The notes: generated from the sequence alone by a model not told the origin. Positions 11,181-46,219 are shown, counted from the first letter of the stretch. The stretch: DNA of 64,000 bases from Dehalococcoidia bacterium (GCA_040902195.1 JBBDXS010000003.1:108752-172751); one strand, 5' to 3'. Numbers and translations: made by a program.

Positions 11181-11257
11181 GTCCCCGTAGCTCAACCGGA
11201 TAGAGCAGCGGACTTCTAATCCGCAGGTTGCAGGTTCGAGTCCTGCCGGGGACGCCA
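11181..11257 (+). tRNA. tRNA-Arg (anticodon TCT); integration target (attL)
   Basis: gtccccg...cggggac acceptor, anticodon arm gcgga-CTTCTAA-tccgc, T-arm gcagg-ttcgagt-cctgc, encoded CCA. An integrase gene lies 190 bp downstream. Confidence 0.9.
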
Positions 11258-11445
11258 GACACCCAACTTCGTATCTGAAGTTGACGGAAGAGCACCCTCC
11301 GATGGCCCATCGCGCCACGCCGTGACCAGCGGATTCGTCCAGCGTTTCCGGACGGTCACAACCAATCCCCTCGTCGTTTGCCCGACCAGCACTGACTGCG
11401 AAAGGAGGCAGTGGAACAATGGTCGCACGACGGAGGTGGAATCAG

Positions 11446-12447
11446 GTGGACAAGTCATCGGTCACACTCGCACGGCTCAGAGAAGCTTACGCCGTGTACA
11501 ACCAAGTGGTGGGTAAGTCGCCCAGAACCATCCACTGGTACAACCAAAAGCTACAGCTTGTTGAGCGGTTCCTCGGGGAGGGCTGCGACCTGGGCGACTT
11601 CACACTGGAATCGGCGCGTGCATATATCGCCGACTTGCAGAACCGCCGGGTACGGTACCAGAACAACGGCTACGTGAAGGACAAGAGCGGCGCGTTGTCG
11701 AGCGCCTATATCCAGGGCTTTGCCCGCGCTCTGCGGGCGTTCTCAACATGGCTAAATCAGGAGGGCTATACCGAGACGAACGTCCTGCAGCCACTGAAGC
11801 CTCCTTGCATCCAGCGCAAGGTCGTCCAGCCACTGACGGACGAGGACGTCCGTCAGATTCTCGGACGCCTCGACCAGAACGACCCCTACGGAGCCCGTGC
11901 CTACGCGATGATCTGGACGCTGCTCGACACCGGCCTCAGGGCTTCCGAGCTCTGCGGCCTGCGCGTCGATAACACGCACATCGAGAAGCAGGGTTTCCTC
12001 AAGGTGCTCGGCAAGGGCAATAAAGAGCGGCTCGTGCCCATCGGAGCGCGCACGATGTCCGTTCTGCTCCGTTGGCGCGACGTGTTCAGGCCGATGTACG
12101 ACGAGCTAGACAGCCCTTACTTTTTCCTCGGCCGAGACGGCGGGCTGATGACCACGATGGCCCTCCAGGAAGTCGTAAAGCGCGCCGGCCGGAACGCGGG
12201 CGTCCCACGCCTGCACTGCCACTTGCTCCGGCACACCTTTGCAACGAACTACCTAGTCATGGAAGTCGGCGACCCGCTCCGGCTCCAGCAGATCCTGGGC
12301 CACACGTCGCTGGAAATGGTCCGGCACTACGTGGCGATGGCCAGCATAGAGCAGAGCTTGTTAGAGAAAAGGCCTTCGCCAATGGATTTGTTCGATAGAG
12401 CCCGGCCTTCCGACAGAACCGCCTACCTCGGAAGAACTCTCAAGTAG
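11446..12447 (+). CDS. Tyrosine-type site-specific recombinase/integrase (XerC/D-like)
   Basis: N-terminal SAM-like core-binding domain (AYAVYNQVVGKSPRTIHWY). Catalytic domain with LDTGLRASEL, HLLRHTFAT and LGHTSLEMVRHY (R..HxxR..Y). Start set to the GTG at 11446 by homology with the paralog, whose equivalent upstream ATG frame is stopped. Confidence 0.9.
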   Translation: MDKSSVTLARLREAYAVYNQVVGKSPRTIHWYNQKLQLVERFLGEGCDLGDFTLESARAYIADLQNRRVRYQNNGYVKDKSGALSSAYIQGFARALRAFSTWLNQEGYTETNVLQPLKPPCIQRKVVQPLTDEDVRQILGRLDQNDPYGARAYAMIWTLLDTGLRASELCGLRVDNTHIEKQGFLKVLGKGNKERLVPIGARTMSVLLRWRDVFRPMYDELDSPYFFLGRDGGLMTTMALQEVVKRAGRNAGVPRLHCHLLRHTFATNYLVMEVGDPLRLQQILGHTSLEMVRHYVAMASIEQSLLEKRPSPMDLFDRARPSDRTAYLGRTLK

Positions 12448-13565
12448 AATTCTTTGGAACGCCCGTAGTCATCGCACAATGCCCTGTCGACATGGTGGCC
12501 CCTAAACGGGCCTATGCTCCAAGCCGCAACGTCGCTTATCCATGCGGTCAGCTCCAAGGGGTCAACCAGGGCCATTCGCGGCTGATATCTTGCAGCAAGC
12601 TGCCTGGCTGATCGGGAGAACTTGGACGTCGTGACCATTACGCCGTAGTCGGCATTCTGATCGATCACGGTAAACATGAATTCTTTCAACTGAGAGAGCC
12701 TGACCGGTTCGGAGCGATGTCGCTTGCATTCCACGAACGTGACAATTGGTAGCTCCGAACCTCTCTGGATCACAATTACATCTTTGCCGTCATCCCAACT
12801 GGCCGGCGTCAGAACGACGTCGTAGCCCAAGCTTCGAAGCAAGGAGGCCACGAGCGCCTCGAACTTGCGGGGGTTGGTCTCCGGTAAGTGGTCAGGCCGG
12901 CGTGACAGATACCTGACTACTTCGGGCTGAATTAGAGTCTCACTATCCGCGAGCGACTTAACAAGTGCCGCGTCTGATTGAATGCTAGCTGTGTCGTCCC
13001 AAACCAATTGAATGTCCTGCGTCTTCAACATGGTCGTCAACCAGCAGTAGGAAAAGCGGAAGATATCATAGTCCGAAAGATCTGGCGCTCTTATGAATGC
13101 CGTGCCACACGATCTTGTAGACGGGTCCCCGAACATGATCGCGTCGAGGTCAAGTTCTATCGTACGTTTACGTACATCAACGAGCGAAGGAAGGCCGTCG
13201 CTAAGGTCTTCGCTATCAGCTGTTCTATAGTCCAATTCAAATGCTGCCTGTCGCATTCGTTCCCAGTCGTCAGAGCAGTCCTTTTCCTCTGGGCCGGTCA
13301 CCTCGAGGGTTAGAACATAAGGGGGCTTGCTTCTCGCTGACTCTTGGTCGGGAAACAGAAGAACGTCATCCCAGAAGTAGCGCAGGCTCAGTTCGTCTTC
13401 GACCGAGGGCCATGGCTGGCCAGGAGTCCGAACCAGTCGCCATAGAGCGACGGATCGGAGCCGCTTCGCCCTCCGCCACCAGGGGCGACCAGGACTCTCT
13501 CGCGCCGCCGTAAAGTCGAGACGACGAGATTGGCCGCGCAATAGCCGCCCAGGGAGGGGTTTCAT
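12423..13565 (-). CDS. Mrr-type restriction endonuclease domain protein with a large unknown N-terminal domain
   Basis: C-terminal FEALVASLLRSLGYDVVLTPASWDDGKDVIVIQ...VTFVECKRH...YGVMVTTSKFS matches the Mrr_cat PD-(D/E)xK core. GGAGGA Shine-Dalgarno sequence 5 nt upstream of the ATG. The 3' end overlaps the integrase 3' end by 25 nt. Confidence 0.7.
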   Translation of the reverse strand: MKPLPGRLLRGQSRRLDFTAARESPGRPWWRRAKRLRSVALWRLVRTPGQPWPSVEDELSLRYFWDDVLLFPDQESARSKPPYVLTLEVTGPEEKDCSDDWERMRQAAFELDYRTADSEDLSDGLPSLVDVRKRTIELDLDAIMFGDPSTRSCGTAFIRAPDLSDYDIFRFSYCWLTTMLKTQDIQLVWDDTASIQSDAALVKSLADSETLIQPEVVRYLSRRPDHLPETNPRKFEALVASLLRSLGYDVVLTPASWDDGKDVIVIQRGSELPIVTFVECKRHRSEPVRLSQLKEFMFTVIDQNADYGVMVTTSKFSRSARQLAARYQPRMALVDPLELTAWISDVAAWSIGPFRGHHVDRALCDDYGRSKEFYLRVLPR

Positions 13566-13611
13566 GGAGGTCCTCCGGGGAGGAGCGGGCCCGGCCAGCC
13601 TTCCGAGTGAG

Positions 13612-13911
13612 CTACCTAAGGCTCGCCGGAAGGACTAACGGTTTGTAGTCCGCCGCCATCAGCAGTTCGTCGACTTCTTCGACTGCGAGGCCGAGACCAA
13701 ATGCGCCGAGGAGAATCACGGCGTCCCGGCTCGGGTTCTCGCGCTCTCCAGAGAGGAGTCTCGACAAGTAGCTCTCGTCGAGCCAGGCGTCCCGGGCGAT
13801 CTGCGACTGTCGCTTGCCGCGCAGTTTCGCTCGGTCGCCGTACCTCTGTAGGAGAGCCGTCAACGTTCCGTTAGCGACTCGCTGAACGCGGGTAGGGTCG
13901 AGTGTTCTCAT
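13612..13911 (-). CDS. Small HTH DNA-binding protein (XRE-like)
   Basis: GKRQSQIARDAWLDESYLSRLLSGERENPSRDAVILL is an HTH. GGAGG lies 6 nt before the ATG at 13911 (the track start at 13917 is a TTG). A paralog is found at 45911-46193. Confidence 0.6.
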   Translation of the reverse strand: MRTLDPTRVQRVANGTLTALLQRYGDRAKLRGKRQSQIARDAWLDESYLSRLLSGERENPSRDAVILLGAFGLGLAVEEVDELLMAADYKPLVLPASLR

Positions 13912-14580
13912 GGTCAACCTCCAAATCTACACACTCATCGAAGGCTGACCTGTTCGACCCGTTGGACTAGGGCCCGCCCCTCCTTTCGCGCACCATTCTG
14001 GATCGACGAGTGCCAGCGCGTCAATGCCCGCCAGGCAATGCCTTCACACCAGCATCAGGTTTACGATCCGCGGTGAGAGGAGTCGACGGTTGAGCGGGAT
14101 GAGACAAGCGGTTCAGGTGCTGCCCCTCCCCTGTAAGGAGGTGATGTAGCGATGAGTGAACAGACAACCGAGTTTCCGGAACCAGAGTTGCCGGAAGATC
14201 CCGAGGCACGTCGCGAGTTAGCCGGCAGTTCGTTGGCCTGATATCGATGTACGTCGAAGATGGCGAGCGAGCGTACCGAGCTATCCGTCAGACACTGCCG
14301 CAATTGCGTGAACTGCTCGACTAGACCGAATCGCACCCAACCTACTCTAACCGTCACTCCTCCTGCCCCATTGATCCGCTCCGATCTACTTCGATACTCA
14401 ATGCCCGTCTTGACAGGCATTCGACCATGCACCTGTAGAATTAGCCCCTGTAGGGTCGGCCTGTACCCTCCCAACGGCAAGGGGAGCAGTAGGCGACGAT
14501 GTTTGTCCATCCCGCCGGCGCAAGCGACGCCCGCGGCAAAGCGGCCGCCACGGCGCTCATAGGCCGACCCGGCGTACACC

Positions 14581-14889: not shown

Positions 14890-15433
14890 CAAGCGCCTCA
14901 AGCCCACGGGCATCGAGCCCTTGGCCTGAGCAAGGGGGAAGCGTCAAAACCCTCATACAGCGGACTCTGTCTCGACCGCGCAATAGCGCCGTCAGTCCAC
15001 CGCAATCGGGTTTCAACCGTCGTCGGCTCGCTCCACTGGGTGGTTCCGCGAACCCGACCACCCCCGCCTCCGCCGGTCTTCGTCGCTTTGCGACTCGCCC
15101 GGTTCCCTCGGGGCTTCGCCCTTCGGCGGACGCGGCGGGCTCGCACGTGCCTGCGGCACTTACTCACCCGCTCGCTAGGCGGAGGTGGTCGGCTTACGCC
15201 GACGACGTGGGGCGCTCGGCATTCCCCCTTGAACCTCCTTCCTTCGCGCCCAAGGGATTGCCCGCTACGCGGGCTCAGATTTCGTGGAACGGCTCATCAG
15301 CCGCCTTGAGGTCGATCGACCGCTCTACGGCGTCTTGGCGGCCCTGGAGGGGCTTTTGAAAAGCGCTACGCCAATAACAACAGTGACCACAACGCGACTG
15401 CCACGCTATCGGCGGGCCAGCTCCCCGCCTGCG

Positions 15434-16258
15434 ATGCAGCTCACGGCTCGTGACATTCGAATTGTGCGCTGGGTCTACGAGATGCGGTTCATGACCCGCG
15501 AGCAGATCCAGCGTTTGGAGTTCTCGCCGTCAACTGCCTCCTATTGCAAGCGGCGGCTGGCCCTGCTCTTTCACAACGGCTACCTCGACCGGAAGTTCAT
15601 TCCCGCGCCGGGCAGCTTTGGTTCCACGCGGGCGATCTATTGTCTCGACAGCAAGGGTGCACAACTTCTTGCATACGAGCTCAAGACCGACATCGACTGG
15701 CGTCCGCGTCACGCCGAGCGAGAGCTGTACTTCCTACAGCACGCCCTGGCTAGCAACGACTTTCGCCTCTGTGCTACCATCGCCTCTCGGCGTCTCGGGC
15801 TCGCGCTCGACTGGACGGACGAGCGGACCCTGCGGCGGAAGGAGATGAAGGACTACGTGGCGGACCCACGGCATGGAGGCCAAAAGCTGGCGGTCATCCC
15901 CGACGGCTACTTCACACTGTCCGATCGCGACAAGAACTTAGCTTTTGCGCTCGAACTCGACCGCTCGACGGTCGAGGAGAAGCCCTTCAAGGCTAAGGTG
16001 CGGGCCTACGGCGAGTGGAAACTCACGGGCGCCTACCAAAGGCGCTTCGGCACGGACAGCCTGCGCATCCTCTTTGTCATCGCCTCCAATCATCGGGACC
16101 GCCACCGCCTCGAGCGCGCCAAGCGCTGGTGTGAAGCCGAAGGCGGGCGGTCTCTCTTCTGGTTTGCCGACTCCGCAGACATCAACGAAGCTACGATTTT
16201 CAACGAGCCGATCTGGCAGATCGCAGGACGCGAGGGCAGCTTCACACTGCTCCAATAG
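15434..16258 (+). CDS. Replication-relaxation family protein
   Basis: MQLTARDIRIVRWVYEMRFMTREQIQRLEFSPSTASYCKRRLALLFHNGYLDRKFIP...IPDGYFTL...FALELDRST is the hallmark of the Replic_Relax family. The alternative upstream start at 15284 would add 50 non-conserved-looking residues. Confidence 0.75.
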   Translation: MQLTARDIRIVRWVYEMRFMTREQIQRLEFSPSTASYCKRRLALLFHNGYLDRKFIPAPGSFGSTRAIYCLDSKGAQLLAYELKTDIDWRPRHAERELYFLQHALASNDFRLCATIASRRLGLALDWTDERTLRRKEMKDYVADPRHGGQKLAVIPDGYFTLSDRDKNLAFALELDRSTVEEKPFKAKVRAYGEWKLTGAYQRRFGTDSLRILFVIASNHRDRHRLERAKRWCEAEGGRSLFWFADSADINEATIFNEPIWQIAGREGSFTLLQ

Positions 16259-16267: not shown

Positions 16268-17131
16268 ATGATCTGGTGGTTTACCTCGACACGACACGAT
16301 CTCGCCATCAAGTCTTGGGTCCGGCAGTGGGTCGGCGGCACGATGCTAGATCGCTGGCTCCAGATTTCCGTTCCGGGCTTCGTCTGGTTCACTCTGTGGT
16401 TTTACCTTGCCCTGGCACTCTACAGCGGGTCGGGAGACAACGGCAGTGGCGGCATTTTCTTCTTCCTCTTCATCGGAACCTTCCCTTGGTGGTTCTGGAT
16501 CGCTGACATGATCATCGACCACTTCCACGTCCAGGCCGACTTGCAGAGGTACGCCTCATCGGAGGATGTCATCATGGCCACACGCTGCGAGTACCAAGGT
16601 GGCCACCCGCAACTTCCTCACGGGCGGTTTGCCTACCTCTTGCTCGAAGGAACGCGCGAAGACCCGAACATCACACTGGGCTTTCCGGCTCCGCCCGGTC
16701 AAACGCCGGACCACTTCAGTATGCCTTTGCTCGATCTTGTGACGCTGGGTCAGAACTCCCAACAGCACGATTCGCCTGCAGGTGATGCCGTGGCCAGCAT
16801 GATCGGCGAGATGGCCAAGAACGCCTCGCTCAAAGAAGCTGCAGGCAAGTTCCTGCGGCCTGAAAGAATCACGCTGGCGGTGCAGTATCAAGGAGTAGCC
16901 GGAAGGAAACACGAAGTCGAAGTCACGAACTTCTTCCACGGCAACGGAGAGATTCGCAACTGGCGCAACTACTTAATCTGCGCACAGGCGGAGGCCGACA
17001 CAGGCATCGTGCCCTTCGGTCCGTGGAAGAGCCTCAAGCCAGGATTGCCAACAGTCGAGGAGGTGCCAAGTGACTATTCTCGGGACGGAGGTCAACGACC
17101 GCCAAGACGTAGTGCTTTCGCCCGAAGGTAG
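16268..17131 (+). CDS. Membrane protein, unknown function
   Basis: Three or four TM helices in the first 90 aa (FVWFTLWFYLALALY, IFFFLFIGTFPWWFWIADMII). The soluble C-terminal domain has no recognisable motif. Confidence 0.5.
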   Translation: MIWWFTSTRHDLAIKSWVRQWVGGTMLDRWLQISVPGFVWFTLWFYLALALYSGSGDNGSGGIFFFLFIGTFPWWFWIADMIIDHFHVQADLQRYASSEDVIMATRCEYQGGHPQLPHGRFAYLLLEGTREDPNITLGFPAPPGQTPDHFSMPLLDLVTLGQNSQQHDSPAGDAVASMIGEMAKNASLKEAAGKFLRPERITLAVQYQGVAGRKHEVEVTNFFHGNGEIRNWRNYLICAQAEADTGIVPFGPWKSLKPGLPTVEEVPSDYSRDGGQRPPRRSAFARR

Positions 17132-18494
17132 ACGTCAGGGCACCTACGTCCTCGGCATCAACGGTACAGGCAAGAGCACGCTTTTGCTCAACATGGCGCT
17201 GCAAGACATCGCGGCCGGCGATGGTCTCTGCCTGCTCGATCCCCACGGCGACCTCGTCGAGGACGTGCTCGCGCGGATCCCGCCCAGCCGCGCCGATGAT
17301 GTCATCCTCTTCGATCCAGCAGACATCGATTACCCCTTAGGCGTCAATCTCTTCGAGTGCTCGGACCGCAACGATCCACGACTAGTCGATCGCGTCTGTT
17401 CGGAGATCGTGCTCACGTTCAAGAAGCTCTTTCCAGACTCCTGGGGACCGCGCATGGAAGACCTCATGCGCCACTCGGTGCTGACATTGCTGGCGACGCC
17501 CGACTGCACACTGCTCGACATGCTTCCGCTGCTAACGGACCCCGACGCCCGGCAGACGTATGTCCGAAGGACGGAAGACCCAGTCATCCGCCACTACTGG
17601 GAGCAAGCCTTCCCCGACAACAAACGTGGCCAGGGCGAGTGGGTCAGCTCCAGCTTGAACAAGATCGGCCGCTTCTTGACCAACCCGGTCATCCGCAACA
17701 TCGTCTCTCAGCCGAAGAGCTCGTTCGACCTCCGAACGCTCATGGATCAGGGCAAAGTCTTGCTAGTTAACTTGTCGAAGGGTCAGCTCGGTGAAGACAA
17801 CTCGGCGCTCTTGGGCTCTGTTATCGTCGGCAAGATCCTCATCGCCGCGCTCTCGCGGGCCGAGATGCCTATCGAGCAGCGCCGGCCGTTCCACCTCATC
17901 GTTGACGAGTATCACTCGTTCGCGACGGAATCGTTCCCGACGCTACAGAGTGAAGGACGCAAGTTCGGCACCGATACGATCGTTGCCCACCAATACCGAG
18001 ACCAGCTCGATCAGCTAAACCGAGGCTCGACGTTGAACGTCGGCAACTTCATCTTGTTCCGCGTCACTGGACGCGACGCCGACGAGCTGTCCACGCAGTT
18101 CGACAACACACCGCCCGAGCCGGACCCAGCTCTGAAGGCTGTGCCCTACCGGGCCGGCCGGGAGGGGATCTATCGGTCAGGTACCGACAAGGCGCTTGTG
18201 AAGGGCAGCAGCCGCAGCTACGGTGACGTGTCCAACGAGACCGCCAACTACTTGGCGAACACGCCGAACTACAAGGCGTATTGCAAGCTGATCGAAGGAA
18301 CCGAACTGACGGAGTACCACATCGAGACTCACCGATGCGAGCTCTCGAAGAACGCGGACATTGCGGAAATGGTGCAGAAGCAGTCGCAGCGCCTAGCCAA
18401 GCCGCGAAGCGAGGTCGAAGCGTTCGTCGCCCAACGCTTCGCCACGGTGCTAGGTCGTAACGGCCGCAAGGACGGCGCGCTCTACGAAGCGTAG
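17070..18494 (+). CDS. P-loop ATPase of the HerA/FtsK/TraG superfamily (type IV coupling protein-like)
   Basis: Walker A GINGTGKST, LLDPHGDL, Walker B FHLIVDEYHSF, and a QYRDQLD tail typical of TraG/TraD-like DNA-transfer ATPases. GAGGAGG lies 6 nt before the GTG. Confidence 0.7.
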   Translation: MTILGTEVNDRQDVVLSPEGRRQGTYVLGINGTGKSTLLLNMALQDIAAGDGLCLLDPHGDLVEDVLARIPPSRADDVILFDPADIDYPLGVNLFECSDRNDPRLVDRVCSEIVLTFKKLFPDSWGPRMEDLMRHSVLTLLATPDCTLLDMLPLLTDPDARQTYVRRTEDPVIRHYWEQAFPDNKRGQGEWVSSSLNKIGRFLTNPVIRNIVSQPKSSFDLRTLMDQGKVLLVNLSKGQLGEDNSALLGSVIVGKILIAALSRAEMPIEQRRPFHLIVDEYHSFATESFPTLQSEGRKFGTDTIVAHQYRDQLDQLNRGSTLNVGNFILFRVTGRDADELSTQFDNTPPEPDPALKAVPYRAGREGIYRSGTDKALVKGSSRSYGDVSNETANYLANTPNYKAYCKLIEGTELTEYHIETHRCELSKNADIAEMVQKQSQRLAKPRSEVEAFVAQRFATVLGRNGRKDGALYEA

Positions 18495-21275: not shown

Positions 21276-21279
21276 TGCA

Positions 21280-22089: not shown

Positions 22090-22090
22090 C

Positions 22091-30194: not shown

Positions 30195-30200
30195 CCAGTC

Positions 30201-36528: not shown

Positions 36529-36549
36529 TACCGTAGTGGCAAGACTCTC

Positions 36550-37104: not shown

Positions 37105-37860
37105 ATGGACGCAATAGGGTCGCCTCCCGAGGAGTCAGACGGCGACGCGCTCGTGGCGAACGAGGTGTCCGGATTGGCTCGACCTGGTCGCGAAGAGGTG
37201 TCGAAGTCGAATGACTTGCAGGATTGGCAAGAGGGTTCATGCCACGTACCGGAAGCAATTAGCGGACGCTGGGCTTATCTGAGACCTTACCGTGACTCAG
37301 ACTTTCCCTACTTCTATGCGTGGCGCACGGATCTACGGGAGTACGGGCTCTGGAAGTCCAAGGTTGCTCCGACGGAGGAGGAGTACGCCGCAGAGCTCGC
37401 TACGCTCCGGTCGCGTTCCGTAGTTCTCACCGTGATTGATCGAGTATCGAGCAAACCAATTGGCCTCGCTCAGGCCTACGACTTCAGTATGGAGGACGGC
37501 TGGACATCGTGCTTGGGCTATATTGAACCGGCCTTTAGGGTTCGCGGTCATGGCGCGGAGGCCGGGTTACTCTTTGCTGATTACCTGTTCAGTTCCTTCC
37601 CAATTCGAAAGGTATATGCTGACGTCTTGGAGTTCAATGGGTCGGTCCTGCGCACGCTTCAGGGCATAGGGTTTGTTGTTGAGGGCAGACGATCCGAGCA
37701 CGGCTTCTTCCAAGGCAAGTATTGGGATCTATTCCATTTGGCGCTTACAAGAACGCGCTGGAACGACGTGCGTAATCGACGATTTCGGAACCTGGTTACG
37801 CTGCCGTTCGGATTTGAGCAGGACGGGGTGGATGACACGTCATGGCAGCCGCGCTCCTGA
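37105..37860 (+). CDS. GNAT-family N-acetyltransferase (RimJ/RimL-like)
   Basis: LRPYRDSDFPYFYAW...IGLAQAY...VRGHGAEAGLLFADYLF...VYADVLEFNGSVLRTLQGIGF has the layout of Acetyltransf_3-type GNATs. Confidence 0.65.
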   Translation: MDAIGSPPEESDGDALVANEVSGLARPGREEVSKSNDLQDWQEGSCHVPEAISGRWAYLRPYRDSDFPYFYAWRTDLREYGLWKSKVAPTEEEYAAELATLRSRSVVLTVIDRVSSKPIGLAQAYDFSMEDGWTSCLGYIEPAFRVRGHGAEAGLLFADYLFSSFPIRKVYADVLEFNGSVLRTLQGIGFVVEGRRSEHGFFQGKYWDLFHLALTRTRWNDVRNRRFRNLVTLPFGFEQDGVDDTSWQPRS

Positions 37861-38435
37861 CCCTAGCGTCATTGGCCCTAGGGGCAGTTTTCCTATCGTC
37901 AGCAGTCTGGAAGGCGATGCACCCGAATGCCTTTCGGCGGTCACTAACAGCCTACGGGCTGAGGGGAATCTCACTGTTGGCCGTGGGTGTTCCAGCTATC
38001 GAAGCAATCGTGGCAATGGGTCTACTGGCGGGACCGTGGCGTCAGGAGAGCGCCGCAATCGCGGCTGCTCTGCTCGCGGCCTTCACCGGGGTCATGGCTT
38101 ATGTGCTAGTTACAAAAGGGGCGGTGCCATGCGGGTGCGGTGGCCTGCTTGGATCCGAACCCGTTGGTTGGAGCAGCGTTTTGCGCAATTTCATGTTGTT
38201 GGGTACTGCGTTCTCACTAATGCTCTTGGCCGGGCCGGTACACCTTGCAGGGTTGAATTCCGTCGTTGAGGATCCCTCTTCCGTGGCGAGTATGGTCTGG
38301 ACGGCTGGAGGCGTCGTGATCCTTGGCGCGTCTGTAGCGGTTGGCACTCTTCAATCAGAGAGGGGACGTGGAATTCACCAGCATCAGCTTCGAAAGGAAG
38401 TCGTACATGAACGCTTTACAGCCGAGCGGAACTGA
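37842..38435 (+). CDS. MauE/DoxX-family redox-associated membrane protein
   Basis: Four TM helices. AVFLSSAVWKAMHPNAFRRSLTAYGL plus a CGCGG motif, as in MauE-like proteins. Confidence 0.6.
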   Translation: MAAALLTLASLALGAVFLSSAVWKAMHPNAFRRSLTAYGLRGISLLAVGVPAIEAIVAMGLLAGPWRQESAAIAAALLAAFTGVMAYVLVTKGAVPCGCGGLLGSEPVGWSSVLRNFMLLGTAFSLMLLAGPVHLAGLNSVVEDPSSVASMVWTAGGVVILGASVAVGTLQSERGRGIHQHQLRKEVVHERFTAERN

Positions 38436-39879
38436 CCACTCACCGAGATCGAGTAGGAGAACGTTTCTTACTCGCAGTCTATATTGGCTGGCCGGGATTG
38501 CATCGTTTGTGATGCTCGGCAGGAAGATCACGGTTCCAGTATCGACCGCGTCAGCGCTACCGGCCGAGCTGCAGCCGGGGGTCGCAGAACTAATAGGGGG
38601 AACTTTTCTAGAGCACGCGGCCGGGCTTCCCGATCCAAGTGAGCGTGCCTCGACCCTGAAGATGGTCCTAGATGGCGCGAGGAGTGGGGTACAGGGTCTT
38701 TTGGCCGAAGCAGAGGCTCTCATGCGAGCAGCTGTCGCGGACGATCCGCAGAGCCGAACTGCTCATGCAGGACTCGCACGCGTCCTGCAAGAGCGCTATC
38801 GGACAGAAGGTGCGTCTAACCTGATCGAGGAGGCAGTCAGCGAAGCGACCACCGCCGATCGGATTGGTGCCTTGAATGGTCAGGTAAGATACGGATACTA
38901 CATAGGTCATACGGCGGATCAGCTGCCGGACAGATCGCTGTTTGACGCCTACTTTGACGAGATACTCCCAGAATTCGAGTCGTATACCACGTTGCTAGGG
39001 TACGGAGTTGGCCTCCGACTACTCGGAGACTCCCTAGCGGAGGAGGTTCTACGTTCCGCGCACGAATTGCGGCCGCGCGGGCATTCTGATCCGGCAGTGG
39101 AGGTTGCCCTATTTCTGCTCAGCCAGGATCGCGTCCAAGATGCCCTCGCTGCGGTTTCGACTCCGAATATTGGTGATATCGAGATGCGGAGCGACTTCGT
39201 CCACCTGGTTCGCGGGGTTGCCCTTGAAAGACTTGGACAGGTCGATGCGGCTCGGGAGGAGTATGCGGTCTACGCTCCTAAGACGGTCGGCCGTCCCGTT
39301 CCGCCCGAGTTGTTGATTGAAGGAAGCGACGCACAGCGAATCTTGCTTCCCGTGGCGGGAGGAGCCTGTGCGCACACCGGCGATGAAGCGATTGCGAAGC
39401 TAGCACGGATCATAACGGCCGAAGCCGGGTCGGAAAGCATTGGATCAATGAGGGCTGTTGGCTGGACGGTGCGCACAAGGGTATTTCGAGGAGCGCCCTG
39501 CTGTGGTGGCATCCAAAACGGCGGAGATTGTGTTGCGGACAAGTACTGGACCGTGATGACACAGTCGGGGCAATTCCCCTATTGGGTCGAGCCACCTTCC
39601 AACACGGCCCGTAGTCAAGCAGATGCCACGTACCTGGGGCTGATACCCGATCCGACATCGGGGCAATGTGTCAATGGAACCACCGTATCCAACCGCTGCG
39701 AGGGATATTGCGACCCGCCATGGTACGTGGACGGAGCCTTTCAGGGTGGCCCGGTGTACTTCTACGGGGGCGTCTCGTCATGTCAGGGATCTCAGTTCGA
39801 GTGTGCGGCTGTGCTTGGTACAACATGTAGCGACGGCCTCTTTCCTAACAACTGCTTCAGTAGGGACGGGCCGTGCTAG
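38407..39879 (+). CDS. Secreted helical-repeat protein with a SleB-like cell-wall hydrolase domain and Cys-rich tail
   Basis: Tat-like SRRTFLTRS plus a TM/signal sequence. AIAKLARIITAEAGSESIGSMRAVGWTVRTRVF resembles the Hydrolase_2 (SleB/CwlJ) motif. The last ~120 aa contain over 12 Cys. Start moved to the ATG at 38407. Confidence 0.5.
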   Translation: MNALQPSGTDHSPRSSRRTFLTRSLYWLAGIASFVMLGRKITVPVSTASALPAELQPGVAELIGGTFLEHAAGLPDPSERASTLKMVLDGARSGVQGLLAEAEALMRAAVADDPQSRTAHAGLARVLQERYRTEGASNLIEEAVSEATTADRIGALNGQVRYGYYIGHTADQLPDRSLFDAYFDEILPEFESYTTLLGYGVGLRLLGDSLAEEVLRSAHELRPRGHSDPAVEVALFLLSQDRVQDALAAVSTPNIGDIEMRSDFVHLVRGVALERLGQVDAAREEYAVYAPKTVGRPVPPELLIEGSDAQRILLPVAGGACAHTGDEAIAKLARIITAEAGSESIGSMRAVGWTVRTRVFRGAPCCGGIQNGGDCVADKYWTVMTQSGQFPYWVEPPSNTARSQADATYLGLIPDPTSGQCVNGTTVSNRCEGYCDPPWYVDGAFQGGPVYFYGGVSSCQGSQFECAAVLGTTCSDGLFPNNCFSRDGPC

Positions 39880-39961
39880 AAGGCTAGTAACACCATAGTT
39901 GCCAAGGCCTTTGCGCTCATGTGGTTTGGTGGGGCCACAGGCCATTGCAGTTCGTCAAGCA

Positions 39962-41260
39962 TCACGGAGCGGTTGGCCTCCAAGCTATGTCGGCAACCGG
40001 ATCTGCGGATTCCGGCTGCTCCACGACTTGAAGGCTGTTGGCCTCCAGTACGAAGACCCGTCTGGTGTCGTTATCTATATACGCGATGGCCTTCCCGGAG
40101 GGCGCCCAGAGTACGCGGTACGCGACCACGTCATCAACCTGGCGCAGATCATCTCCTGATGGAGATACCACCCATAGGCCGGCTGGGTTGGCGTATTTGG
40201 CGGAAGAGATTAGGTTGATGAGAATGCGTGTGCCGTCTGGAGACCATTGCGCTGACTGTGCGGGCAGAAACTGCGCCTGGTACTGCATTACCGAGACCGC
40301 TTGACGGCCAACCAAGCTGACGACGGCATAACCTTGGGTAGTTGGCTCCTCTTCGCCCACCGGACCCTCAGACTGAGCGAAATAGACCACGAGTTCGTCT
40401 GTCGTTGGAGACCATGCCGGGGCGTCAACATAGACAGCATCTGGCAAGCCTAGATCAGCGGGGGACAAAGAGTTCGTCGTCTGACTGCTTAGGTCGTATA
40501 TTTCGATGTTGCCAGCAGACCCGTAGGCTATCATGCTCCCGTCTGGGGACCAGGATGACGGCCAAGTCATGGGGCTTTGGCCAACTACCTGATAGTCTGA
40601 GCCGTCTGCACTGATAAGCGTGAGCGAGCCACCGTACGGCGGTTCGTCCAGGAGACCGGTCGACGCATGGCTTGCTGTGGCCAGACGTGACCCGTCGGGT
40701 GACCAACGAGGCCACCCCTCTATGCGGTCGGATGTCTCAGTGAGCTGACGCAGCTGAACTTCGGCATCCACTAAGAAGACATCCCCGCCGCTGACGAAAG
40801 CCAGGCTAGAGCCGTCATGGCTCCATTGAAGATCCGAGACCATCGCTGGCAACGTTGGCAACGCCGATCCCTCAACTCTACCGCCTGCTACGAACGTCAA
40901 GATGGGGTTGCCACTCTCAGGTTGGATTGTCAGGGCCTCGGCCCTGCGGGTAACCGAGCCTCCACCTTTTAGGCCGTTGAGAACCAGGAGGATCGCCCCC
41001 GACGCGAAAGCCAGGACCAGAACGGCGGCAATGGACACAACCCACTGGCGACGGTGCATACGCGGGCGCTGGGCAGTCGAACGAGAAGTAACTCGCGCCC
41101 AGACGCGTCGGCGCGCATCGTTGGGTTCCTCTCCGAGAGCAGCCCGCAACCTATTGGCGAGAGTCAGGAGGCTTTGATCTCGTACGATTACGCTTGCTCG
41201 ATGGGTTGCCCCATCGAGGCTGCTAGCGATGATGTCCGCCTGTCTCTGCTCTTCGTTCAT
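39962..41260 (-). CDS. Anti-sigma factor-like membrane protein with PD40 beta-propeller ectodomain
   Basis: Overlaps the ECF sigma gene by 4 nt. Single TM helix (WVVSIAAVLVLAFASGAILLVL), then repeated WSPDGS/WSHDGS motifs. Confidence 0.6.
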   Translation of the reverse strand: MNEEQRQADIIASSLDGATHRASVIVRDQSLLTLANRLRAALGEEPNDARRRVWARVTSRSTAQRPRMHRRQWVVSIAAVLVLAFASGAILLVLNGLKGGGSVTRRAEALTIQPESGNPILTFVAGGRVEGSALPTLPAMVSDLQWSHDGSSLAFVSGGDVFLVDAEVQLRQLTETSDRIEGWPRWSPDGSRLATASHASTGLLDEPPYGGSLTLISADGSDYQVVGQSPMTWPSSWSPDGSMIAYGSAGNIEIYDLSSQTTNSLSPADLGLPDAVYVDAPAWSPTTDELVVYFAQSEGPVGEEEPTTQGYAVVSLVGRQAVSVMQYQAQFLPAQSAQWSPDGTRILINLISSAKYANPAGLWVVSPSGDDLRQVDDVVAYRVLWAPSGKAIAYIDNDTRRVFVLEANSLQVVEQPESADPVADIAWRPTAP

Positions 41261-41826
41261 TCGAACTTGACACCATCCTCTTCTGCGGTTTCTCGAAGCG
41301 CTCGGAGCGCGCGATAGAGTAGCATCTTAACTGCAGACTCCCTCTTCCCGACCACTTCAGCGATCTCCCTTGTGGTTAATTCGCCGGCGAACTTCAGGGT
41401 CACCACGTTCTTCTGGGCTGGCGTCAAGTGCTCAACAAGCCGCCACAGCGATTCTCTCAGGTCAACGCGACTAAGCTCTTCGGCGGCCGCTGGGTCTGAT
41501 TTCCCAACATGGTCAATGGATCGGACAGAGCGGTGCGAACGATAGTAATTGACAACCTCGTTGTGAGCGATACGAAACAGCCACGCCCTAAACGACGCCG
41601 TGCGTCGACTTTCAAGCGAACGCAAGACTTTGAAAAATGTCTCCGCCGTGACATCTTCCGCTGCCGCCATGCTTGGCACACGTGACCTGACGTATCGAAA
41701 GACCGCCGAAAAGTTACTATCGTACAACGCGGCGAAGTCATCATCGGCTGTTACCGAAGGAACATCTTGCCTCGAGTCGTGAACGGACCGCCCAAACACT
41801 ACTTGTCGCAATATCTCCCTGCCCAA
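41257..41826 (-). CDS. ECF-type RNA polymerase sigma-70 family factor
   Basis: Region 2 FSAVFRYVRSRV...AEDVTAETFFKV...AWLFRIAHNEVVNYYR. Region 4 LTPAQKNVVTLKFAGELTTREIAEVVGKRESAVKMLLYRALRAL. Confidence 0.85.
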   Translation of the reverse strand: MGREILRQVVFGRSVHDSRQDVPSVTADDDFAALYDSNFSAVFRYVRSRVPSMAAAEDVTAETFFKVLRSLESRRTASFRAWLFRIAHNEVVNYYRSHRSVRSIDHVGKSDPAAAEELSRVDLRESLWRLVEHLTPAQKNVVTLKFAGELTTREIAEVVGKRESAVKMLLYRALRALRETAEEDGVKFE

Positions 41827-42058
41827 TAGACGGTTCAGGCACCAGAATGGTAACGTCGTAAGCGGGTTCCTTTCAAGGCGATCTTCGATCTACATGATTA
41901 CGCTACGGAGCCCTTGCGGTCATGCGTGACGGTCAACTAAAATCCCCTCGTCATCCCGCGTCGGGTGACGACGAGAAGACTCGGCGCGCGATGAGCCCTC
42001 CAGGGCGCACTTTCCGAATCTGGAGCGTTCTCGTAGAACGGGCCGAGTACCTGCGAGC

Positions 42059-42103
42059 CTTCTAATCCGCAGGTTGCAGGTTCGAGTCCTGCCGGGGACG
42101 CCA
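42059..42103 (+). repeat. Direct repeat of the tRNA-Arg(UCU) 3' 45 nt (attR of element 1 / attL of element 2)
   Basis: cttctaatccgcaggttgcaggttcgagtcctgccggggacgcca is identical to 11213-11257. The base before it differs from the tRNA, so the 5' half is absent. Confidence 0.85.
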
Positions 42104-42291
42104 GACACTCAATTTCGTATCTGAAATTGACGGAACGCCGCCCTCCGAAGGCTCTTCGCGTGGCTCGATGACCAGCGGATTCGTCCAGCGTTTCCGTGCG
42201 GTCAAAACCAGTCCCCTCGTCGTTTGCCCGACCAGCACTGACTGCGAAAGGAGGCAGTGGAACAATGGTCGCACGACGGAGGTGGTAGCAC

Positions 42292-43329
42292 GTGTACAAG
42301 TCAGTGGTCACGCTGGAACGGCTCAAAGAGGCCTACGCGGTCTACAACCAAGTGGTAGGCAAGTCGCCCAGGACCATCCAGTGGTACAACCAGAAGCTCG
42401 AGCTCTTCGAGCGCTTCCTGGGCGACGGCTGCGAGCTAGCTGATTTCACGCTGGAGTCGGCCCGGGCCTACATCGCAGACCTGCAGAACCGGCGGGCCAG
42501 GTACGAGCGAAACGGGTACGTCAAGGACAAGAGCGGCACGTTGTCGAGCGCCTACATCCAGGGCTTCGCGCGCGCATTGCGGGCGTTCTCGACCTGGCTC
42601 AACCAGGAGGGCTACACCGACACCAACGTCCTACAGCCGCTCAAGCCGCCGCGCATCCAGCGCAAGGTGATCCAGCCGCTCACAGACGAGGAGGTCGGAC
42701 GCATCCTCGGACGGCTTAAGCAGAACGACCCCTATGCTGCCCGCGCTTACGCCATGATCTGGACGTTGCTCGACACCGGCCTCAGGGCCTCCGAGCTCTG
42801 TGGCCTCCGCGTCGAAGACATGCACATCGAGAAGCAGGGGTTCCTGAAAGTGTTAGGCAAGGGCAACAAGGAGCGTCTCGTGCCGATCGGCACGCGGACG
42901 ATGTCGGTCTTGCTCCGCTGGCGCGACGTGTTTCGGCCGATGTACGACGAGCTGGACAGCCCCTACCTCTTCCTGGCCCGGGAGGGCCGGTCACTGACGA
43001 CGACCGCCCTACAGGAGGTGGTCAAGCGTGCTGGTAGGAATTCAGGCGTCCCGCGCGTGCACTGCCACCTCCTCCGCCACACGTTCGCAACGAACTGCTT
43101 GGTGAAGGAAGTAGGGGACCCGCTCCGCCTGCAACAGATTTTAGGACACGAAACTCTTGAGATGGTTCGCCACTACGTGGCCATGGCTAGCGTCGAGCAG
43201 AGCCTGCTGGAGAGGCGAGCGTCACCAATGGACTTGTTCGCAAAAACCATGCCGGGGCGTGACGAACGCGCACGACCACCTGAACTTGCCGGAACAGAAG
43301 CCAATGCTGGTGCAGCTGCCCCAACGTGA
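42292..43329 (+). CDS. Tyrosine-type site-specific recombinase/integrase (paralog of 11446-12447)
   Basis: Collinear with integrase 1 (TLERLKEAYAVYNQVVGKSPRTIQWY...LDTGLRASEL...HLLRHTFATN...LGHETLEMVRHY). The ~190-bp upstream leader is also conserved. Confidence 0.9.
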   Translation: MYKSVVTLERLKEAYAVYNQVVGKSPRTIQWYNQKLELFERFLGDGCELADFTLESARAYIADLQNRRARYERNGYVKDKSGTLSSAYIQGFARALRAFSTWLNQEGYTDTNVLQPLKPPRIQRKVIQPLTDEEVGRILGRLKQNDPYAARAYAMIWTLLDTGLRASELCGLRVEDMHIEKQGFLKVLGKGNKERLVPIGTRTMSVLLRWRDVFRPMYDELDSPYLFLAREGRSLTTTALQEVVKRAGRNSGVPRVHCHLLRHTFATNCLVKEVGDPLRLQQILGHETLEMVRHYVAMASVEQSLLERRASPMDLFAKTMPGRDERARPPELAGTEANAGAAAPT

Positions 43330-43527
43330 TCGATGTCTACGATACGAGAAACGCCAACCAGATACCCGCGAGCAAGACAATAACCAGCAAGACAACGAAC
43401 GCAACCACCCACAGCCGAACGCTGGGATGCAGAAGCAGTGGAATGAGGTCCTCCGCTGGAGGACCAACACCGACCCGATTCGAAATACGCCAACTCCACG
43501 GCATCGTTGGACCTGTTTTAGCGCCCG

Positions 43528-44697
43528 TTACTCCAGCGTGCGGATTACCGCACCGAGACGCTCAGCTGCACCTCGGAAGGCACTCGGATCCCGCGCCAAG
43601 GCAATTCGAATGTACTTCGCACCTTGCCACCGATGATCCCAGAAGAAATTGTAGCCCGAAAGCACATGTACACCATTCTCCTCCAACCTGTTCACGAGCT
43701 CTGCGGCTGACGTCTTGGCATGAATCTTCGCCCAGGAAAGACTCATGAATGGTTCCTCGACGGGCTGGAGAAAAGTCCCATCAAGCTCTTCGTAAAGCTT
43801 CTTGCGATTCGCCGCTATCTGACCTCGGACATGCCGCAGGTCGTCGCCAATCGAGTCGTCAATAAAGCTCGTGAGGAGTGATAATGTGAACGGTGAAACG
43901 TGAAGAATGAAGTCGGTATGAATCTTTGACAGACGACTAGCGATGCCGGTACTGGCCGCCAGGATTCCGATCTTCAACTCATGAGTCGGCCATGTCTTTC
44001 CCGTGTCTTCAATTACTACGTACTCGATTCCCGCATCGTTTAGAAGGCTGTATTGATCCCACTCAAAAGACTCGTCGAAGAATCTGAATGAGCAGTCGAT
44101 GACTAGAAGGGTCCTATTTCTTCGACTAAAGTCTAGTAGCAGCTCAAAATTCTGTCTTGATATCGTCGTACCCGTCGGGTTGTTCGGCGCCACTATCGCA
44201 ATCGCGCGCGTCGATACGTTCTTCAACGCGTCAGGGAAGGCATCCGACGCCAAAGAGCGATCAGGTAAGCTGTGTAGCGCTACCCCGTGCCGCTTATAAA
44301 TGTCGGCTAGGTTGTCGAATGCCGGCTCGATGAGCGTGAGATCGAGGTGGTGCAACCTCAAGTAGTTGGCCACAATCTCAATGGCCATTGACGCGGAATG
44401 ACAGAGAAGATACTTGGTGTGTTCACCGTCCACTGACTGCTTAGCCAGGCCGTAGAAGCTCTGAAGGAAGGCCGCCTCGAGATCCTGCTGATGCTCCCTC
44501 GAGACTGACAAGAACCGTTGGCTCAGGCTTTTGATTATCGCCAACTGCCTGTCGGACCAGAGCTGATGCACGTGGCCGTCGGTCAGATTGAAGGGCTCCG
44601 GCAATGCCGGCAGCTCTTGCTCTGTGAGGTTCCTTCTGCGCCGAGCCAACATACCATACGGATCCCGCCGACCAGCGCCCGTTATTCTATTCTTCAT
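43528..44697 (-). CDS. PLP-dependent aminotransferase class I/II-like protein
   Basis: IAIVAPNNPTGTTI, LLVIDCSFRFF and EDTGKTWPTHELKIG (candidate PLP-lysine context) fit the fold-type I aminotransferase layout. Confidence 0.65.
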   Translation of the reverse strand: MKNRITGAGRRDPYGMLARRRRNLTEQELPALPEPFNLTDGHVHQLWSDRQLAIIKSLSQRFLSVSREHQQDLEAAFLQSFYGLAKQSVDGEHTKYLLCHSASMAIEIVANYLRLHHLDLTLIEPAFDNLADIYKRHGVALHSLPDRSLASDAFPDALKNVSTRAIAIVAPNNPTGTTISRQNFELLLDFSRRNRTLLVIDCSFRFFDESFEWDQYSLLNDAGIEYVVIEDTGKTWPTHELKIGILAASTGIASRLSKIHTDFILHVSPFTLSLLTSFIDDSIGDDLRHVRGQIAANRKKLYEELDGTFLQPVEEPFMSLSWAKIHAKTSAAELVNRLEENGVHVLSGYNFFWDHRWQGAKYIRIALARDPSAFRGAAERLGAVIRTLE

Positions 44698-45416
44698 TGG
44701 CCGCCACCTTCTCTAAAGAATAGCACCGAGAAGGCGATATTAACAAGCAGCAGATTCATTGCTGCAGCGCCAGCACCAAATGAGGCGAATTCTACCGACG
44801 ATGCAGCGCCGCGAGCGGTGGATATCCACATGAACAACAGTATCACTCCGAACGCCAATAGGCCTGGAGCATCTACCACCGCAAAGAACTTCCGATAGTC
44901 CTCCTTGACTGCATCTTTTACAACGTTGAGCTTCGGAATCGTCTCGCTTGAGAGGACGTATGCCAGCAGAAGATCGATGAGTGCTAGCCACGCAACAATT
45001 GATGCTTCGGCTGTAACCCTCAGTATTCCCGATTCTGCGTCCGTCGCGAAGAGGACGTAGACGCCGACAGTTACGCCACCAGTCCCTATGACAAAAAACT
45101 GGGTCACTATGCTGATCGGCCCAGCCCGACCCGGACCGTCCGCGTACGCTCTTGGGAACTTGTATAGATGAAAGAGAAAGCAATACAGTAGAGACCAAAG
45201 AGAAGCCGCAAGTTCCCAAGTCTCGACATATGGACGTGGTCCGTCTACGCCGATGAAGCCGTTGAGTTTGTTGTTGATACTCTGCGAAATTGACAAGTCC
45301 ATAGCTGTTCCTAGGGGCAGGACTAGAACGAGTGCCACCCCAAGCGCGATCATCGCCACGGTAAACCAGTCGATCGGCTTCTTTCCTGCGGGGTTGTTGC
45401 TGACGCTAGACCCCAA
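44694..45416 (-). CDS. Polytopic membrane protein, unknown function
   Basis: About 6 TM helices. 4-nt overlap with the aminotransferase gene. Confidence 0.5.
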   Translation of the reverse strand: MGSSVSNNPAGKKPIDWFTVAMIALGVALVLVLPLGTAMDLSISQSINNKLNGFIGVDGPRPYVETWELAASLWSLLYCFLFHLYKFPRAYADGPGRAGPISIVTQFFVIGTGGVTVGVYVLFATDAESGILRVTAEASIVAWLALIDLLLAYVLSSETIPKLNVVKDAVKEDYRKFFAVVDAPGLLAFGVILLFMWISTARGAASSVEFASFGAGAAAMNLLLVNIAFSVLFFREGGGQ

Positions 45417-45435
45417 GACCTAGCTCCGCCATAGC

Positions 45436-45834
45436 CTACGCCTCCTCGCTGATCAAACCATCATGTACCACTCGGTAGCCACCCGTTCCGCTGACCAACC
45501 ATTGGTTGGCCCTATTGACCGTACCCTCACTGATTTCTAGGATATGTTGAGTTTTTGTCTGCGTTTCTCCCGCCAGCAGAAGGCGCGCAGCGGCCCACCT
45601 GTTAGCTCCCATCTTTATCTCGTGCGCGGTAAAAACGTCGCGGAGAAACCGGAGCAGCAACTCTCTGTCGCTTGACGCAAACGCCAGTGCATCAAGCAGC
45701 GAACGGACACGCGCGGTTCGGAGCTCTTTCTCGATCCGATGCACCGGCTCCGGCAACTGGCATGCCTCCCATACCTCAAGGCCGCACCGCCCTGACACCC
45801 TAAGGGCGCGTGGCCAGTCCCTACTGGGACGCAC
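45436..45834 (-). CDS. TrpR-like / YerC-YecD family DNA-binding protein
   Basis: FLRDVFTAHEIKMGANRWAAARLLLAGETQTKTQHILEISEGTVNRANQWLVSGTGGYRVV parallels YerC (F..D.cT..Ei......R...A..L......y..I....g.S..TIsR..r.L..G..GY). Confidence 0.55.
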   Translation of the reverse strand: MRPSRDWPRALRVSGRCGLEVWEACQLPEPVHRIEKELRTARVRSLLDALAFASSDRELLLRFLRDVFTAHEIKMGANRWAAARLLLAGETQTKTQHILEISEGTVNRANQWLVSGTGGYRVVHDGLISEEA

Positions 45835-45910
45835 TATGGCAAAGACAAGCTATCGGGTCAAGTCGACGGCCGGCGGGGGAGGGGCGGGCCCGGCCAGCCT
45901 TCCGAGTGAG

Positions 45911-46193
45911 CTATCTAAGGCTCGCCGGAAGGACTAACGGTTTGTAGTCCGCCGCCATCAGCAGTTCGTCGACTTCCTCCACCGCCAGCCCCAACCCGAA
46001 TGAACCGAGCAGAATGAGGGCAGCGCGGCTTGGATTGACTCGCTCTCCTGAGAGAAGTCGTGACAGGTAGCTCTCATCGAGCCACGCGTCCCGGGCAATC
46101 TGCGACTGTCGCTTGCCGCGCAGTTTCGCCCGATCGCCGTACCTCTGCAGGAGAACTGTCAGACTTCCCTCAGTGACTCGCTGAACGCGGACA
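45911..46193 (-). pseudogene. Paralog of the 13612-13911 HTH gene lacking its own start codon (5' end replaced by att/tRNA sequence)
   Basis: Translation ...VRVQRVTEGSLTVLLQRYGDRAKLRGKRQSQIARDAWLDESYLSRLLSGERVNPSRAALILLGSFGLGLAVEEVDELLMAADYKPLVLPASLR*. The frame stays open upstream through the att copy to a TAG at 46244-46246, with no ATG, GTG or TTG in between. Confidence 0.6.
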
Positions 46194-46219
46194 GGGTTCG
46201 AGTCCTGCCGAGGACGCCA
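46194..46219 (+). repeat. Third, shorter copy of the tRNA-Arg(UCU) 3' end (attR of element 2)
   Basis: gggttcgagtcctgccgaggacgcca versus the tRNA aggttcgagtcctgccggggacgcca (one internal mismatch). GC content rises immediately to its right. Confidence 0.7.

Follow-up and report, generated by a model that had tools for sequence, protein, structure and literature searches.

Probable tandem accretion of two related integrase-bearing elements, one apparently complete and one a remnant, at a tRNA-Arg(UCU) gene of a Dehalococcoidia genome

A 35-kb island of low guanine-plus-cytosine (GC) content adjoins the tRNA-Arg(UCU) gene in a metagenome-derived genome of a Dehalococcoidia bacterium (Chloroflexota; GCA_040902195.1 JBBDXS010000003.1:108752-172751, a 64,000-nt stretch referred to below as the window). 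We read the island as two related tyrosine-recombinase elements lying head to tail in the 3' half of the tRNA gene, element 1 complete and element 2 a remnant, and give this reading a probability of about 0.78. Serial site-specific integration by related elements, which a first-pass annotation of the window had proposed, is still the best explanation, given the distinct integrases, the unrelated genes in their variable slots and the tandems of the same family found elsewhere. The two elements counted by that annotation do both bear an integrase; the second, however, is a remnant with a start-less helix-turn-helix (HTH) gene, a truncated outer attachment (att) repeat and no right arm. The array is ordinary tandem accretion, here in a little-studied element family, and is not surprising as such. 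Its main features are as follows.

11181-11257, + strand: intact tRNA-Arg(UCU), the integration target (ARAGORN, called as tct)
11213-11262, + strand: att copy 1 (att1), attL of element 1; 50 nt identical to 42059-42108
42059-42108, + strand: att copy 2 (att2), attR of element 1 and attL of element 2; the 3' 45 nt of the tRNA plus 5 nt
46195-46222, + strand: att copy 3 (att3); 25 nt with 1 mismatch, plus GAC
11213-42108: element 1, 30.8 kb, with identical 50-bp ends and a conserved right arm
42059-46222: element 2, 4.1 kb, with the integrase Int2, three cargo genes and a start-less HTH gene
11419-12447, + strand: tyrosine integrase Int1 (PF00589, E = 1.9e-31)
42292-43329, + strand: tyrosine integrase Int2, 345 aa (PF00589, E = 1.6e-33)

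The array is delimited by three repeats in direct orientation, all taken from the target gene's 3' end; the intact gene itself stands at one end of the series. A search of the window with a 25-mer, allowing up to 3 mismatches, returns exactly these three sites and none (0) in 100 shuffles of the window. ARAGORN agrees with the first-pass annotation on the intact tRNA at 11181-11257, and the perfect 45-nt copy placed at 42059-42103 is borne out; identity in fact extends to 50 nt, since 11213-11262 and 42059-42108 match perfectly over 45 nt of tRNA plus GACAC. The block opens at the first base of the anticodon loop (CTTCTAA). Identity that reaches from the anticodon loop as far as the 3' end of the tRNA is found at att1, at att2 and in a related element on another contig (L101, below), but not at att3. 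A third copy is present, as had been claimed, but taken as 26 nt at 46194-46219 it has 2 mismatches or a 1-nt indel and not 1 mismatch; it is 46195-46219 that differs from 11233-11257 at one position, and the next 3 nt (GAC) also agree. This copy keeps only the part from the T-arm to the tRNA 3' end, the anticodon stem-loop part being gone. All three repeats are therefore tRNA-derived, as a single series would be, but they are not equivalent, the third being a truncated att beside a decapitated HTH gene.

The 3' 45 nt of the intact tRNA are supplied by element 1. Its attP would have to hold these 45 nt, and integration would thereby rebuild the tRNA. Strand exchange, we infer, occurs at the anticodon loop or close to it, because the canonical identity blocks begin there.

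Composition sets the island apart, as the annotation had judged by eye for the DNA between the outer repeats. GC content is 66.9% in the left flank, 58.0% in element 1, 57.4% in element 2 and 65.6% in the right flank, and the island differs from the flanks in 500-nt windows (Mann-Whitney P = 4e-19). GC at third codon positions of genes is 0.66 in the island versus 0.83 in the flanks (P = 2e-9).

Each of the first two att copies is followed by the same leader, ~188 bp long (~190 bp in the annotation), and by a paralogous integrase, so that each segment between repeats carries its own related but distinct recombination module. Int1 has 342 aa from the ATG at 11419 or 333 aa from the GTG at 11446; Int2 is apparently intact, and its upstream ATG frame is ended by a TAG codon. 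The two proteins are 86% identical over 319 aligned residues and 83.4% in full-length alignment. The alignment that had been suggested as a check, through att, leader and integrase, gives 82.5% nucleotide identity over 1185 nt (blastn, 11213-12394 against 42059-43240). A second homologous block, not mentioned for this array in the annotation, follows at 13577-13903 and 45876-46203 (86% identity, the HTH gene), and the genes between the two blocks are entirely different in elements 1 and 2.

Duplication of one att-integrase-HTH shell within the genome by unequal recombination, followed by divergence and cargo swapping, would also leave two such shells, and these are indeed the only mutual homologues in the window, in direct orientation and in the same order. 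We hold this explanation to be very unlikely. The shells have diverged by 14–18% in nucleotide sequence, yet no difference separates att1 from att2; the slots hold unrelated genes, and independent tandems of the family are known elsewhere (contigs L081/L098). The integrases argue the same way. Int1 has more than 4800 homologues, those with names being mostly from Dehalococcoidia, and in the integrase tree Int1 and Int2 fall into one clade without being mutual closest relatives. Int2 shares 86.0% identity with homologue P0003 and 84.2% with P0004 against 83.4% with Int1, and is thus nearer to integrases from other samples than to its neighbour. As Int2 groups with sequences from other samples and the slot cargo is unrelated, we reject duplication in place and favour two integrations.

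Element 2 is a deletion remnant from a distinct lineage of the family of element 1, not a second complete element. Apart from its att sequences and Int2, it consists of the following parts.

43528-45834, - strand: slot cargo, encoding a class I/II aminotransferase, a 240-aa protein of unknown function and a TrpR-like protein
45911-46193, - strand: 5'-truncated copy of the HTH gene

No ATG, GTG or TTG codon starts the HTH gene, whose frame enters att3 directly. Homology to the HTH gene of element 1 ends exactly where it meets att3, at a short shared stretch that reads ACTCGA(A)CCCT in the HTH gene (codons 4-6) and ACTCGAACCT in the T-arm of the tRNA. The left end of element 2 is canonical for the family; at the right end the conserved right arm is absent. 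This ending is most simply explained by a deletion running from HTH codons 4-6 to the T-arm of attR, with its junction inside the shared stretch. Along with the right arm, such a deletion would have taken the backbone for transfer and replication and that half of the attR of element 2 which holds the anticodon loop; either microhomology or the integrase, at a secondary site, may have brought it about. Should exchange occur in the anticodon loop, att3 would be no substrate, and excision would be closed to element 2 as well as to the composite of both elements. Element 2 is therefore probably unable to excise and fixed in place. Three junctions of excised circles had been put forward for testing: 46193/42104 and 46193/11258 are unlikely, and only 42058/11258, from element 1, is expected.

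Element 2 might instead be a functional mini-element that recombines within the 26-nt T-arm block, its circle restoring the N-terminus and start of the HTH protein by fusing the gene across attP to an open frame on the minus strand of the leader (42274 to 42104). When an att2 x att3 junction is simulated, the leader and HTH frames do agree, giving a single stop-free frame (VWRPRQDSNP); the minus-strand frame is conserved between the leaders of elements 1 and 2, Int2 is intact, and a similar 26-nt att copy exists on contig L006. Frame agreement, however, has a one-in-three chance, and we judge the fusion to be a coincidence, while conservation of the leader is accounted for by the integrase promoter, ribosome-binding site and arm motifs. 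Every full att stops the leader frame in the anticodon loop, right after LQPAD, so that it is non-coding across a canonical attP. The HTH gene of element 1 starts by itself, far from att, and element 2 is without the right arm conserved in three other elements. We therefore find a working mini-element improbable and keep to element 2 as a remnant.

Element 1 looks like a complete integrative element. Its parts, with the domains on which their assignment rests, are listed below.

11258-11445, + strand: left arm (leader), ~88% identical to 42104-42291
12423-13565, - strand: Mrr-type restriction endonuclease, slot cargo between the integrase and HTH genes (PF04471, E = 6.6e-22)
13612-13917, - strand: XRE-family HTH protein, 101 aa, conserved backbone (HTH_31, HTH_3)
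15284-16258, + strand: putative Replic_Relax (MobC-superfamily) nickase/relaxase (PF13814, E = 3.3e-24; phrog_9381 'replication initiation by nicking')
16268-17131, + strand: 287-aa protein with two N-terminal hydrophobic helices (hydropathy scan)
17070-18494, + strand: TrwB/VirD4-like ATPase of the HerA-FtsK superfamily, 474 aa (PF10412; PDB TrwB 1e9r)
19789-21275, + strand: XRE repressor-like protein and ImmA/IrrE-like M78 metallopeptidase (PF01381, PF06114)
21280-24922: central cargo, with an unknown protein, a phosphopantetheinyl transferase (PPTase), a dCTP-deaminase-like protein and a radical SAM protein (+ strand) and a UDG-superfamily protein (- strand)
28446-32451, + strand: right-hand backbone, with DUF2958, 316-aa, 104-aa, AAA_22/TniB-like ATPase, 116-aa and HTH_36 proteins
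32439-41826: right-hand cargo, ~9 kb, with prenyltransferase-like, ketoacyl synthase (KAS) and acyl carrier protein (ACP), GNAT, MauE, TPR, PD40 beta-propeller and ECF sigma factor genes
41827-42058, + strand: right arm, homologous to the right arms of the L101 element and the upstream L081 element

The left arm is also conserved in L081, L082 and L085; it contains a hairpin, a 23-nt motif at 11353-11375 and the ribosome-binding site of the integrase. The motif, CGGTCA-N7-TCCCCTCGTC, has only three sites in the 64 kb, one in each left arm and one in the right arm of element 1 (41930-41952); our motif search of the window did not find it at the right end of element 2. It is conserved in arms of other family members, and its copies are candidate arm-type integrase sites. 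The hairpin stands straight after att, at 11263-11284 (AACTTC-GTATCT-GAAGTT) in element 1 and at 42109-42130 (AATTTC-GTATCT-GAAATT) in element 2, the latter with a compensatory C/G to T/A change at one base pair. Comparable hairpins are seen in L081, L085, L086 and L095. This structure may terminate transcription of the rebuilt tRNA or serve to bind a protein.

Fitting the canonical architecture of the family at both ends, element 1 is probably a functional integrative element. Behind the integrase comes a slot that holds the Mrr-type gene here, different genes in element 2, L095 and L097, and next to nothing in L081. The 101-aa HTH protein, whose HTH_31 and HTH_3 scores are both slightly under the Pfam curated cutoffs, has homologues at the equivalent position in L017, L081, L095 and L097 and is probably a regulator or recombination directionality factor. 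Two small proteins are encoded between its gene and that of the Replic_Relax protein. The 474-aa ATPase has TrwB (1e9r) as its nearest solved relative (E = 2.9e-6, residues 25-316), and its plasmid homologues are annotated as type IV secretion system (T4SS) DNA-binding domain or DUF87 proteins. A hydropathy scan predicts no N-terminal transmembrane helix in it. The end of the 287-aa gene overlaps the start of the ATPase gene, and a 267-287-aa gene occupies this place in L081, L095 and L097 too; its product may contribute the membrane portion of a coupling protein that is split in two. The XRE/ImmA pair is a candidate induction switch. On the right-hand side, the AAA_22/TniB-like ATPase is encoded at 30350-31180 and the HTH_36 protein, which resembles phage replication initiators, at 31702-32451. 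The right-hand backbone block recurs in L098 and L101, and 29839-30239 is 90% identical in nucleotide sequence to L081.

No protein of a T4SS family, of VirB4 type or of a mating pore was found among ~37 scanned open reading frames (ORFs) of element 1, the largest of which has 512 aa; about 10 ORFs are without any match, which leaves room for an unfamiliar pore. Element 1 thus has what is expected of an integrative and mobilizable element (IME): an integrase with att sites, a predicted relaxase with a putative coupling protein, and no complete pore set. To judge from its gene content, it is probably mobilizable. It would most likely excise as a circle and be mobilised by the pore of another element or by an unfamiliar single-ATPase route.

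PF13814 is the MobC profile of CONJscan, and a MobC relaxase with a VirD4-like coupling protein but no pore is a signature of some IMEs (PMC5357655). A close parallel in gene content is with streptococcal class 8 IMEs (PMC5357655), which likewise have a PF13814 nickase and a VirD4/TrwB-like ATPase and no mating-pore genes. Class 8 IMEs, however, use a serine integrase and are ~10 kb long, whereas the family described here has a tyrosine integrase and 24-31 kb; its ATPase is without a membrane domain (perhaps separately encoded), and it carries an additional replication-like module. An integrative and conjugative element (ICE) of the actinomycete type was considered and rejected, as the ATPase matches TrwB_AAD_bind and TraD and not the FtsK_SpoIIIE profile of TraB.

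A different comparison is offered by IME1 of Dehalococcoides and Dehalogenimonas (bioRxiv 10.64898/2026.09.15.751708), 21-28 kb long with GC below that of its host, which in the same bacterial class also lies downstream of a tRNA, with an XerC/D-like recombinase first and variable regulator/nuclease genes next. Element 1 could by this analogy be a temperate non-tailed virus (budding or filamentous) and not of conjugation type. This layout of tRNA integration, XerC/D-like first gene and variable regulator/nuclease slot is shared with IME1 (bioRxiv 10.64898/2026.09.15.751708), the ATPase strongly matches a phage family of unknown function (phrog_5156, E = 1e-44), and several small uncharacterised ORFs are present. 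Still, scans against Pfam, NCBIfam and PHROGs did not find the pI-like ATPase, the bifunctional primase-helicase, the serine resolvase or the large protein of IME1 in which a metallophosphoesterase domain may be present, and with them most of its hallmark genes are missing from view; the terminal gene encodes an ECF sigma factor instead of a Cro/C1 repressor, and the ATPase is closest to TrwB, with a MobC-type nickase beside it. We consider a viral nature of element 1 unlikely, and membership in IME1 is rejected: the position next to a tRNA with an XerC/D-like gene first agrees, but the hallmark genes do not.

Elements of the same build are found in other Dehalococcoidia contigs, at tRNA-Arg(UCU), tRNA-Lys(UUU) and tRNA-Met and at times in tandem; a metagenome scan with Int1 as query gave 10 loci. 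Their backbone runs from Int through the variable slot, HTH, 85-aa and ~170-aa proteins, Replic_Relax, a 267-287-aa protein and a 474-486-aa ATPase, and onward through a variable region to DUF2958 ... AAA_22, the 116-aa protein, HTH_36, cargo, right arm and attR. At tRNA-Arg(UCU) itself it stands in L017 (amino acid identity 56% for Int, 61% for the nickase and 71% for the ATPase) and, at a 3' fragment of the gene and behind another integrase, in L097. A complete single element of ~24 kb sits at an intact tRNA-Lys(UUU) in L095/L100/L101; its attR in L101 is a 45-nt block whose first base is the exact start of the anticodon loop (CTTTTAA), and the right arms of this element and of element 1 can be aligned. 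L081/L098 hold two family elements in tandem with a tRNA-Lys-type att between them, and L086 has a member at tRNA-Met.

In L081 (9788-9850) the integrase behind the tRNA-Lys(UUU)-type att is 79% identical to Int1 (79-81% to Int1/Int2). The leader of this second L081 element is nearly identical to that of element 2 (42059-42130 compared), the attP differing only in its tRNA-derived segment, and the anticodon stem-loops of L081 and the window show two base differences, one in the loop and the other in the stem.

It is possible, if doubtful, that these elements make up an undescribed Chloroflexota-wide family of 24-31 kb, integrating at tRNAs and free of a T4SS, that moves by neither classical conjugation nor tailed phage. 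Its backbone would comprise Int, a variable defence slot, HTH, a MobC-like nickase, a split VirD4-like ATPase and a replication module. Equally tentative is the picture of its targeting, in which integrases ~80% identical would use tRNA-Arg(UCU) or tRNA-Lys(UUU) and more distant members tRNA-Met, with near-identical attP arms around a variable tRNA segment; a single-ATPase or an IME1-like budding route might serve as an example of its transfer.

The flanking DUF6391 gene indicates a metagenome-assembled host of the class Dehalococcoidia in Chloroflexota, and a sediment metagenome was the single public run found to hold the region. Its data consist of short assembled contigs, each repeat interrupting the assembly. 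One may ask whether the junctions of the array are assembly artefacts, a foreign or episomal low-GC element having been stitched in through the shared 50-nt tRNA repeat: the assembly is metagenomic, the contigs of the source run end at every repeat, the sample holds many other tRNA-Arg contexts, and the piece from int1 to the Mrr gene has a somewhat higher depth (33.5 vs 24-28). However, identical stretches do not exceed 74 nt and are spanned by ordinary 150-nt reads. Depths are similar in all pieces (left flank 24.2, int1-Mrr piece 33.5, element 1 body 28.5, element 2 28.3, right flank 27.8), which favours single-copy chromosomal DNA over a chimeric join. Cohesin or dockerin-type genes lie in both flanks, homologues of right-flank genes stand near the same tRNA cluster in L003, and the family occupies the same tRNA in L017. 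An artefact seems highly improbable to us, and we treat the two elements as integrated side by side in the chromosome.

The locus itself is a hotspot of integration in several relatives. Scanning genome contigs with the upstream DUF6391 protein returned relatives at no more than 76% amino acid identity, and in most Dehalococcoidia relatives the order of the DUF6391 gene and then tRNA-Arg(UCU) is kept. At this locus 2-5 att copies were counted in other Dehalococcoidia. Five copies of the tRNA 3' part are present in L002, two each in L003, L036 and L050, and two direct and one inverted in L006. The extra copies in L002, L003, L036 and L050 start at the anticodon loop or just before; the second copy of L006 is an exception, of 26 nt and with the T-arm only, like att3 of the window.

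Several points weigh against the history proposed here. The tree branch that splits Int1 from Int2 is supported at only 80/80. The DUF6391-based contig scan yielded no close relative with an empty site, and the nearest genomes share ~75% amino acid identity in the flanking gene and are rearranged on the downstream side. The region is available only as short contigs interrupted at the repeats, in which excision joints are not visible. Relaxase and coupling-protein roles are assigned from profile similarity alone, the match to TrwB being weak (E ~3e-6). Finally, the T-arm-only att copy of L006 shows that short blocks might be real sites of another element class.

ICEs and IMEs are well known to accrete in tandem with decayed partners (PMC5357655, PMC5704250, PMC5812530), and a model of such accretion exists for ICESt1 and its cis-mobilizable elements (CIMEs; Pavlovic et al. 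2004 and Bellanger et al. 2011, as cited in PMC5357655). Our array resembles such ICE/IME/CIME accretions in its three direct att copies from the 3' end of the target, in a complete element beside a decayed relative, in related but distinct integrases and in decay through deletion of the transfer module. Unlike the ICESt1/CIME case, it lies in a metagenome-assembled Chloroflexota host at tRNA-Arg(UCU), and the remnant retains an intact integrase while half of the outer att is lost, so that cis-mobilisation of the composite looks unlikely.

Insertion sites within tRNA genes were reportedly classified by Williams in 2002, with an anticodon-loop class among them. The array is like that class in a 45-nt block that spans the tRNA from the first base of the anticodon loop to its 3' terminus and in an integrase gene that adjoins the rebuilt tRNA; it is unlike it in the outermost copy, which retains only the T-arm to the 3' end.

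For annotation, the value of the analysis is that a 35-kb island is delimited and a probably active element is told apart from a fixed remnant. It also defines a backbone and att architecture for a family that recurs in Dehalococcoidia metagenomes with defence-type and biosynthetic cargo, and provides a natural example of the decay of an accreted element and of near-identical integration modules directed to different tRNAs. Knowledge of tandem accretion itself is unchanged.

Some observations concern the cargo and surroundings of the array. In the central part of element 1, 19776-24922 is a tight operon of XRE, ImmA-like M78 peptidase, unknown protein, AcpS-type PPTase, dCTP-deaminase-fold and radical SAM genes, with a convergent gene of the UDG superfamily; the dCTP-deaminase-fold protein ends in a C-terminal hydrophobic helix. 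The operon may be a defence or nucleotide/DNA-modification system.

At the locus in other genomes, the five direct tRNA-Arg(UCU) 3' copies of L002 (10511-19122) are 1.1-2.7 kb apart, with one large gene per interval and no integrase, that is, integrase-less cassettes between att copies; two of the genes have dockerin domains (an S8 peptidase and an arylsulfotransferase-like protein). In L003, the right-flank genes at 46307-47020 and 48116-49537 have their homologues next to the tRNA-Val end of the block that runs from tRNA-Val to tRNA-Arg(UCU), an arrangement consistent with inversion of this ~11-kb block (window 1-11257 compared with L003, L012, L030 and L041). Several other relatives have the homologues of 50580-51998 and 53635-55827 upstream of DUF6391 and reversed, and the inverted tRNA-Arg-like copy of L006 lies 8.7 kb upstream. 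Inversion may have occurred between att copies.

Near the left end of the window (184-419), two tandem 73-nt units (184-256 and 257-329, 99% identical) precede a third that merges into tRNA-Val(CAC) at 344-419. The units have the acceptor and D arm of tRNA-Val, an anticodon arm reading TAC and a 3' part that is not tRNA-like, and they are not called by ARAGORN. The last ~32 nt of tRNA-Arg(GCG) (581-656; repeated part 626-657) recur 70 nt downstream at 697-727 with 97% identity, resembling a tiny att-type scar at another tRNA gene of the window. In the right flank, four copies of the perfect palindrome GGGGCGCATGGCCATGCGCCCC stand inside 39-74-nt intergenic repeats at 55829-56669, resembling repetitive extragenic palindromic (REP) sequences.

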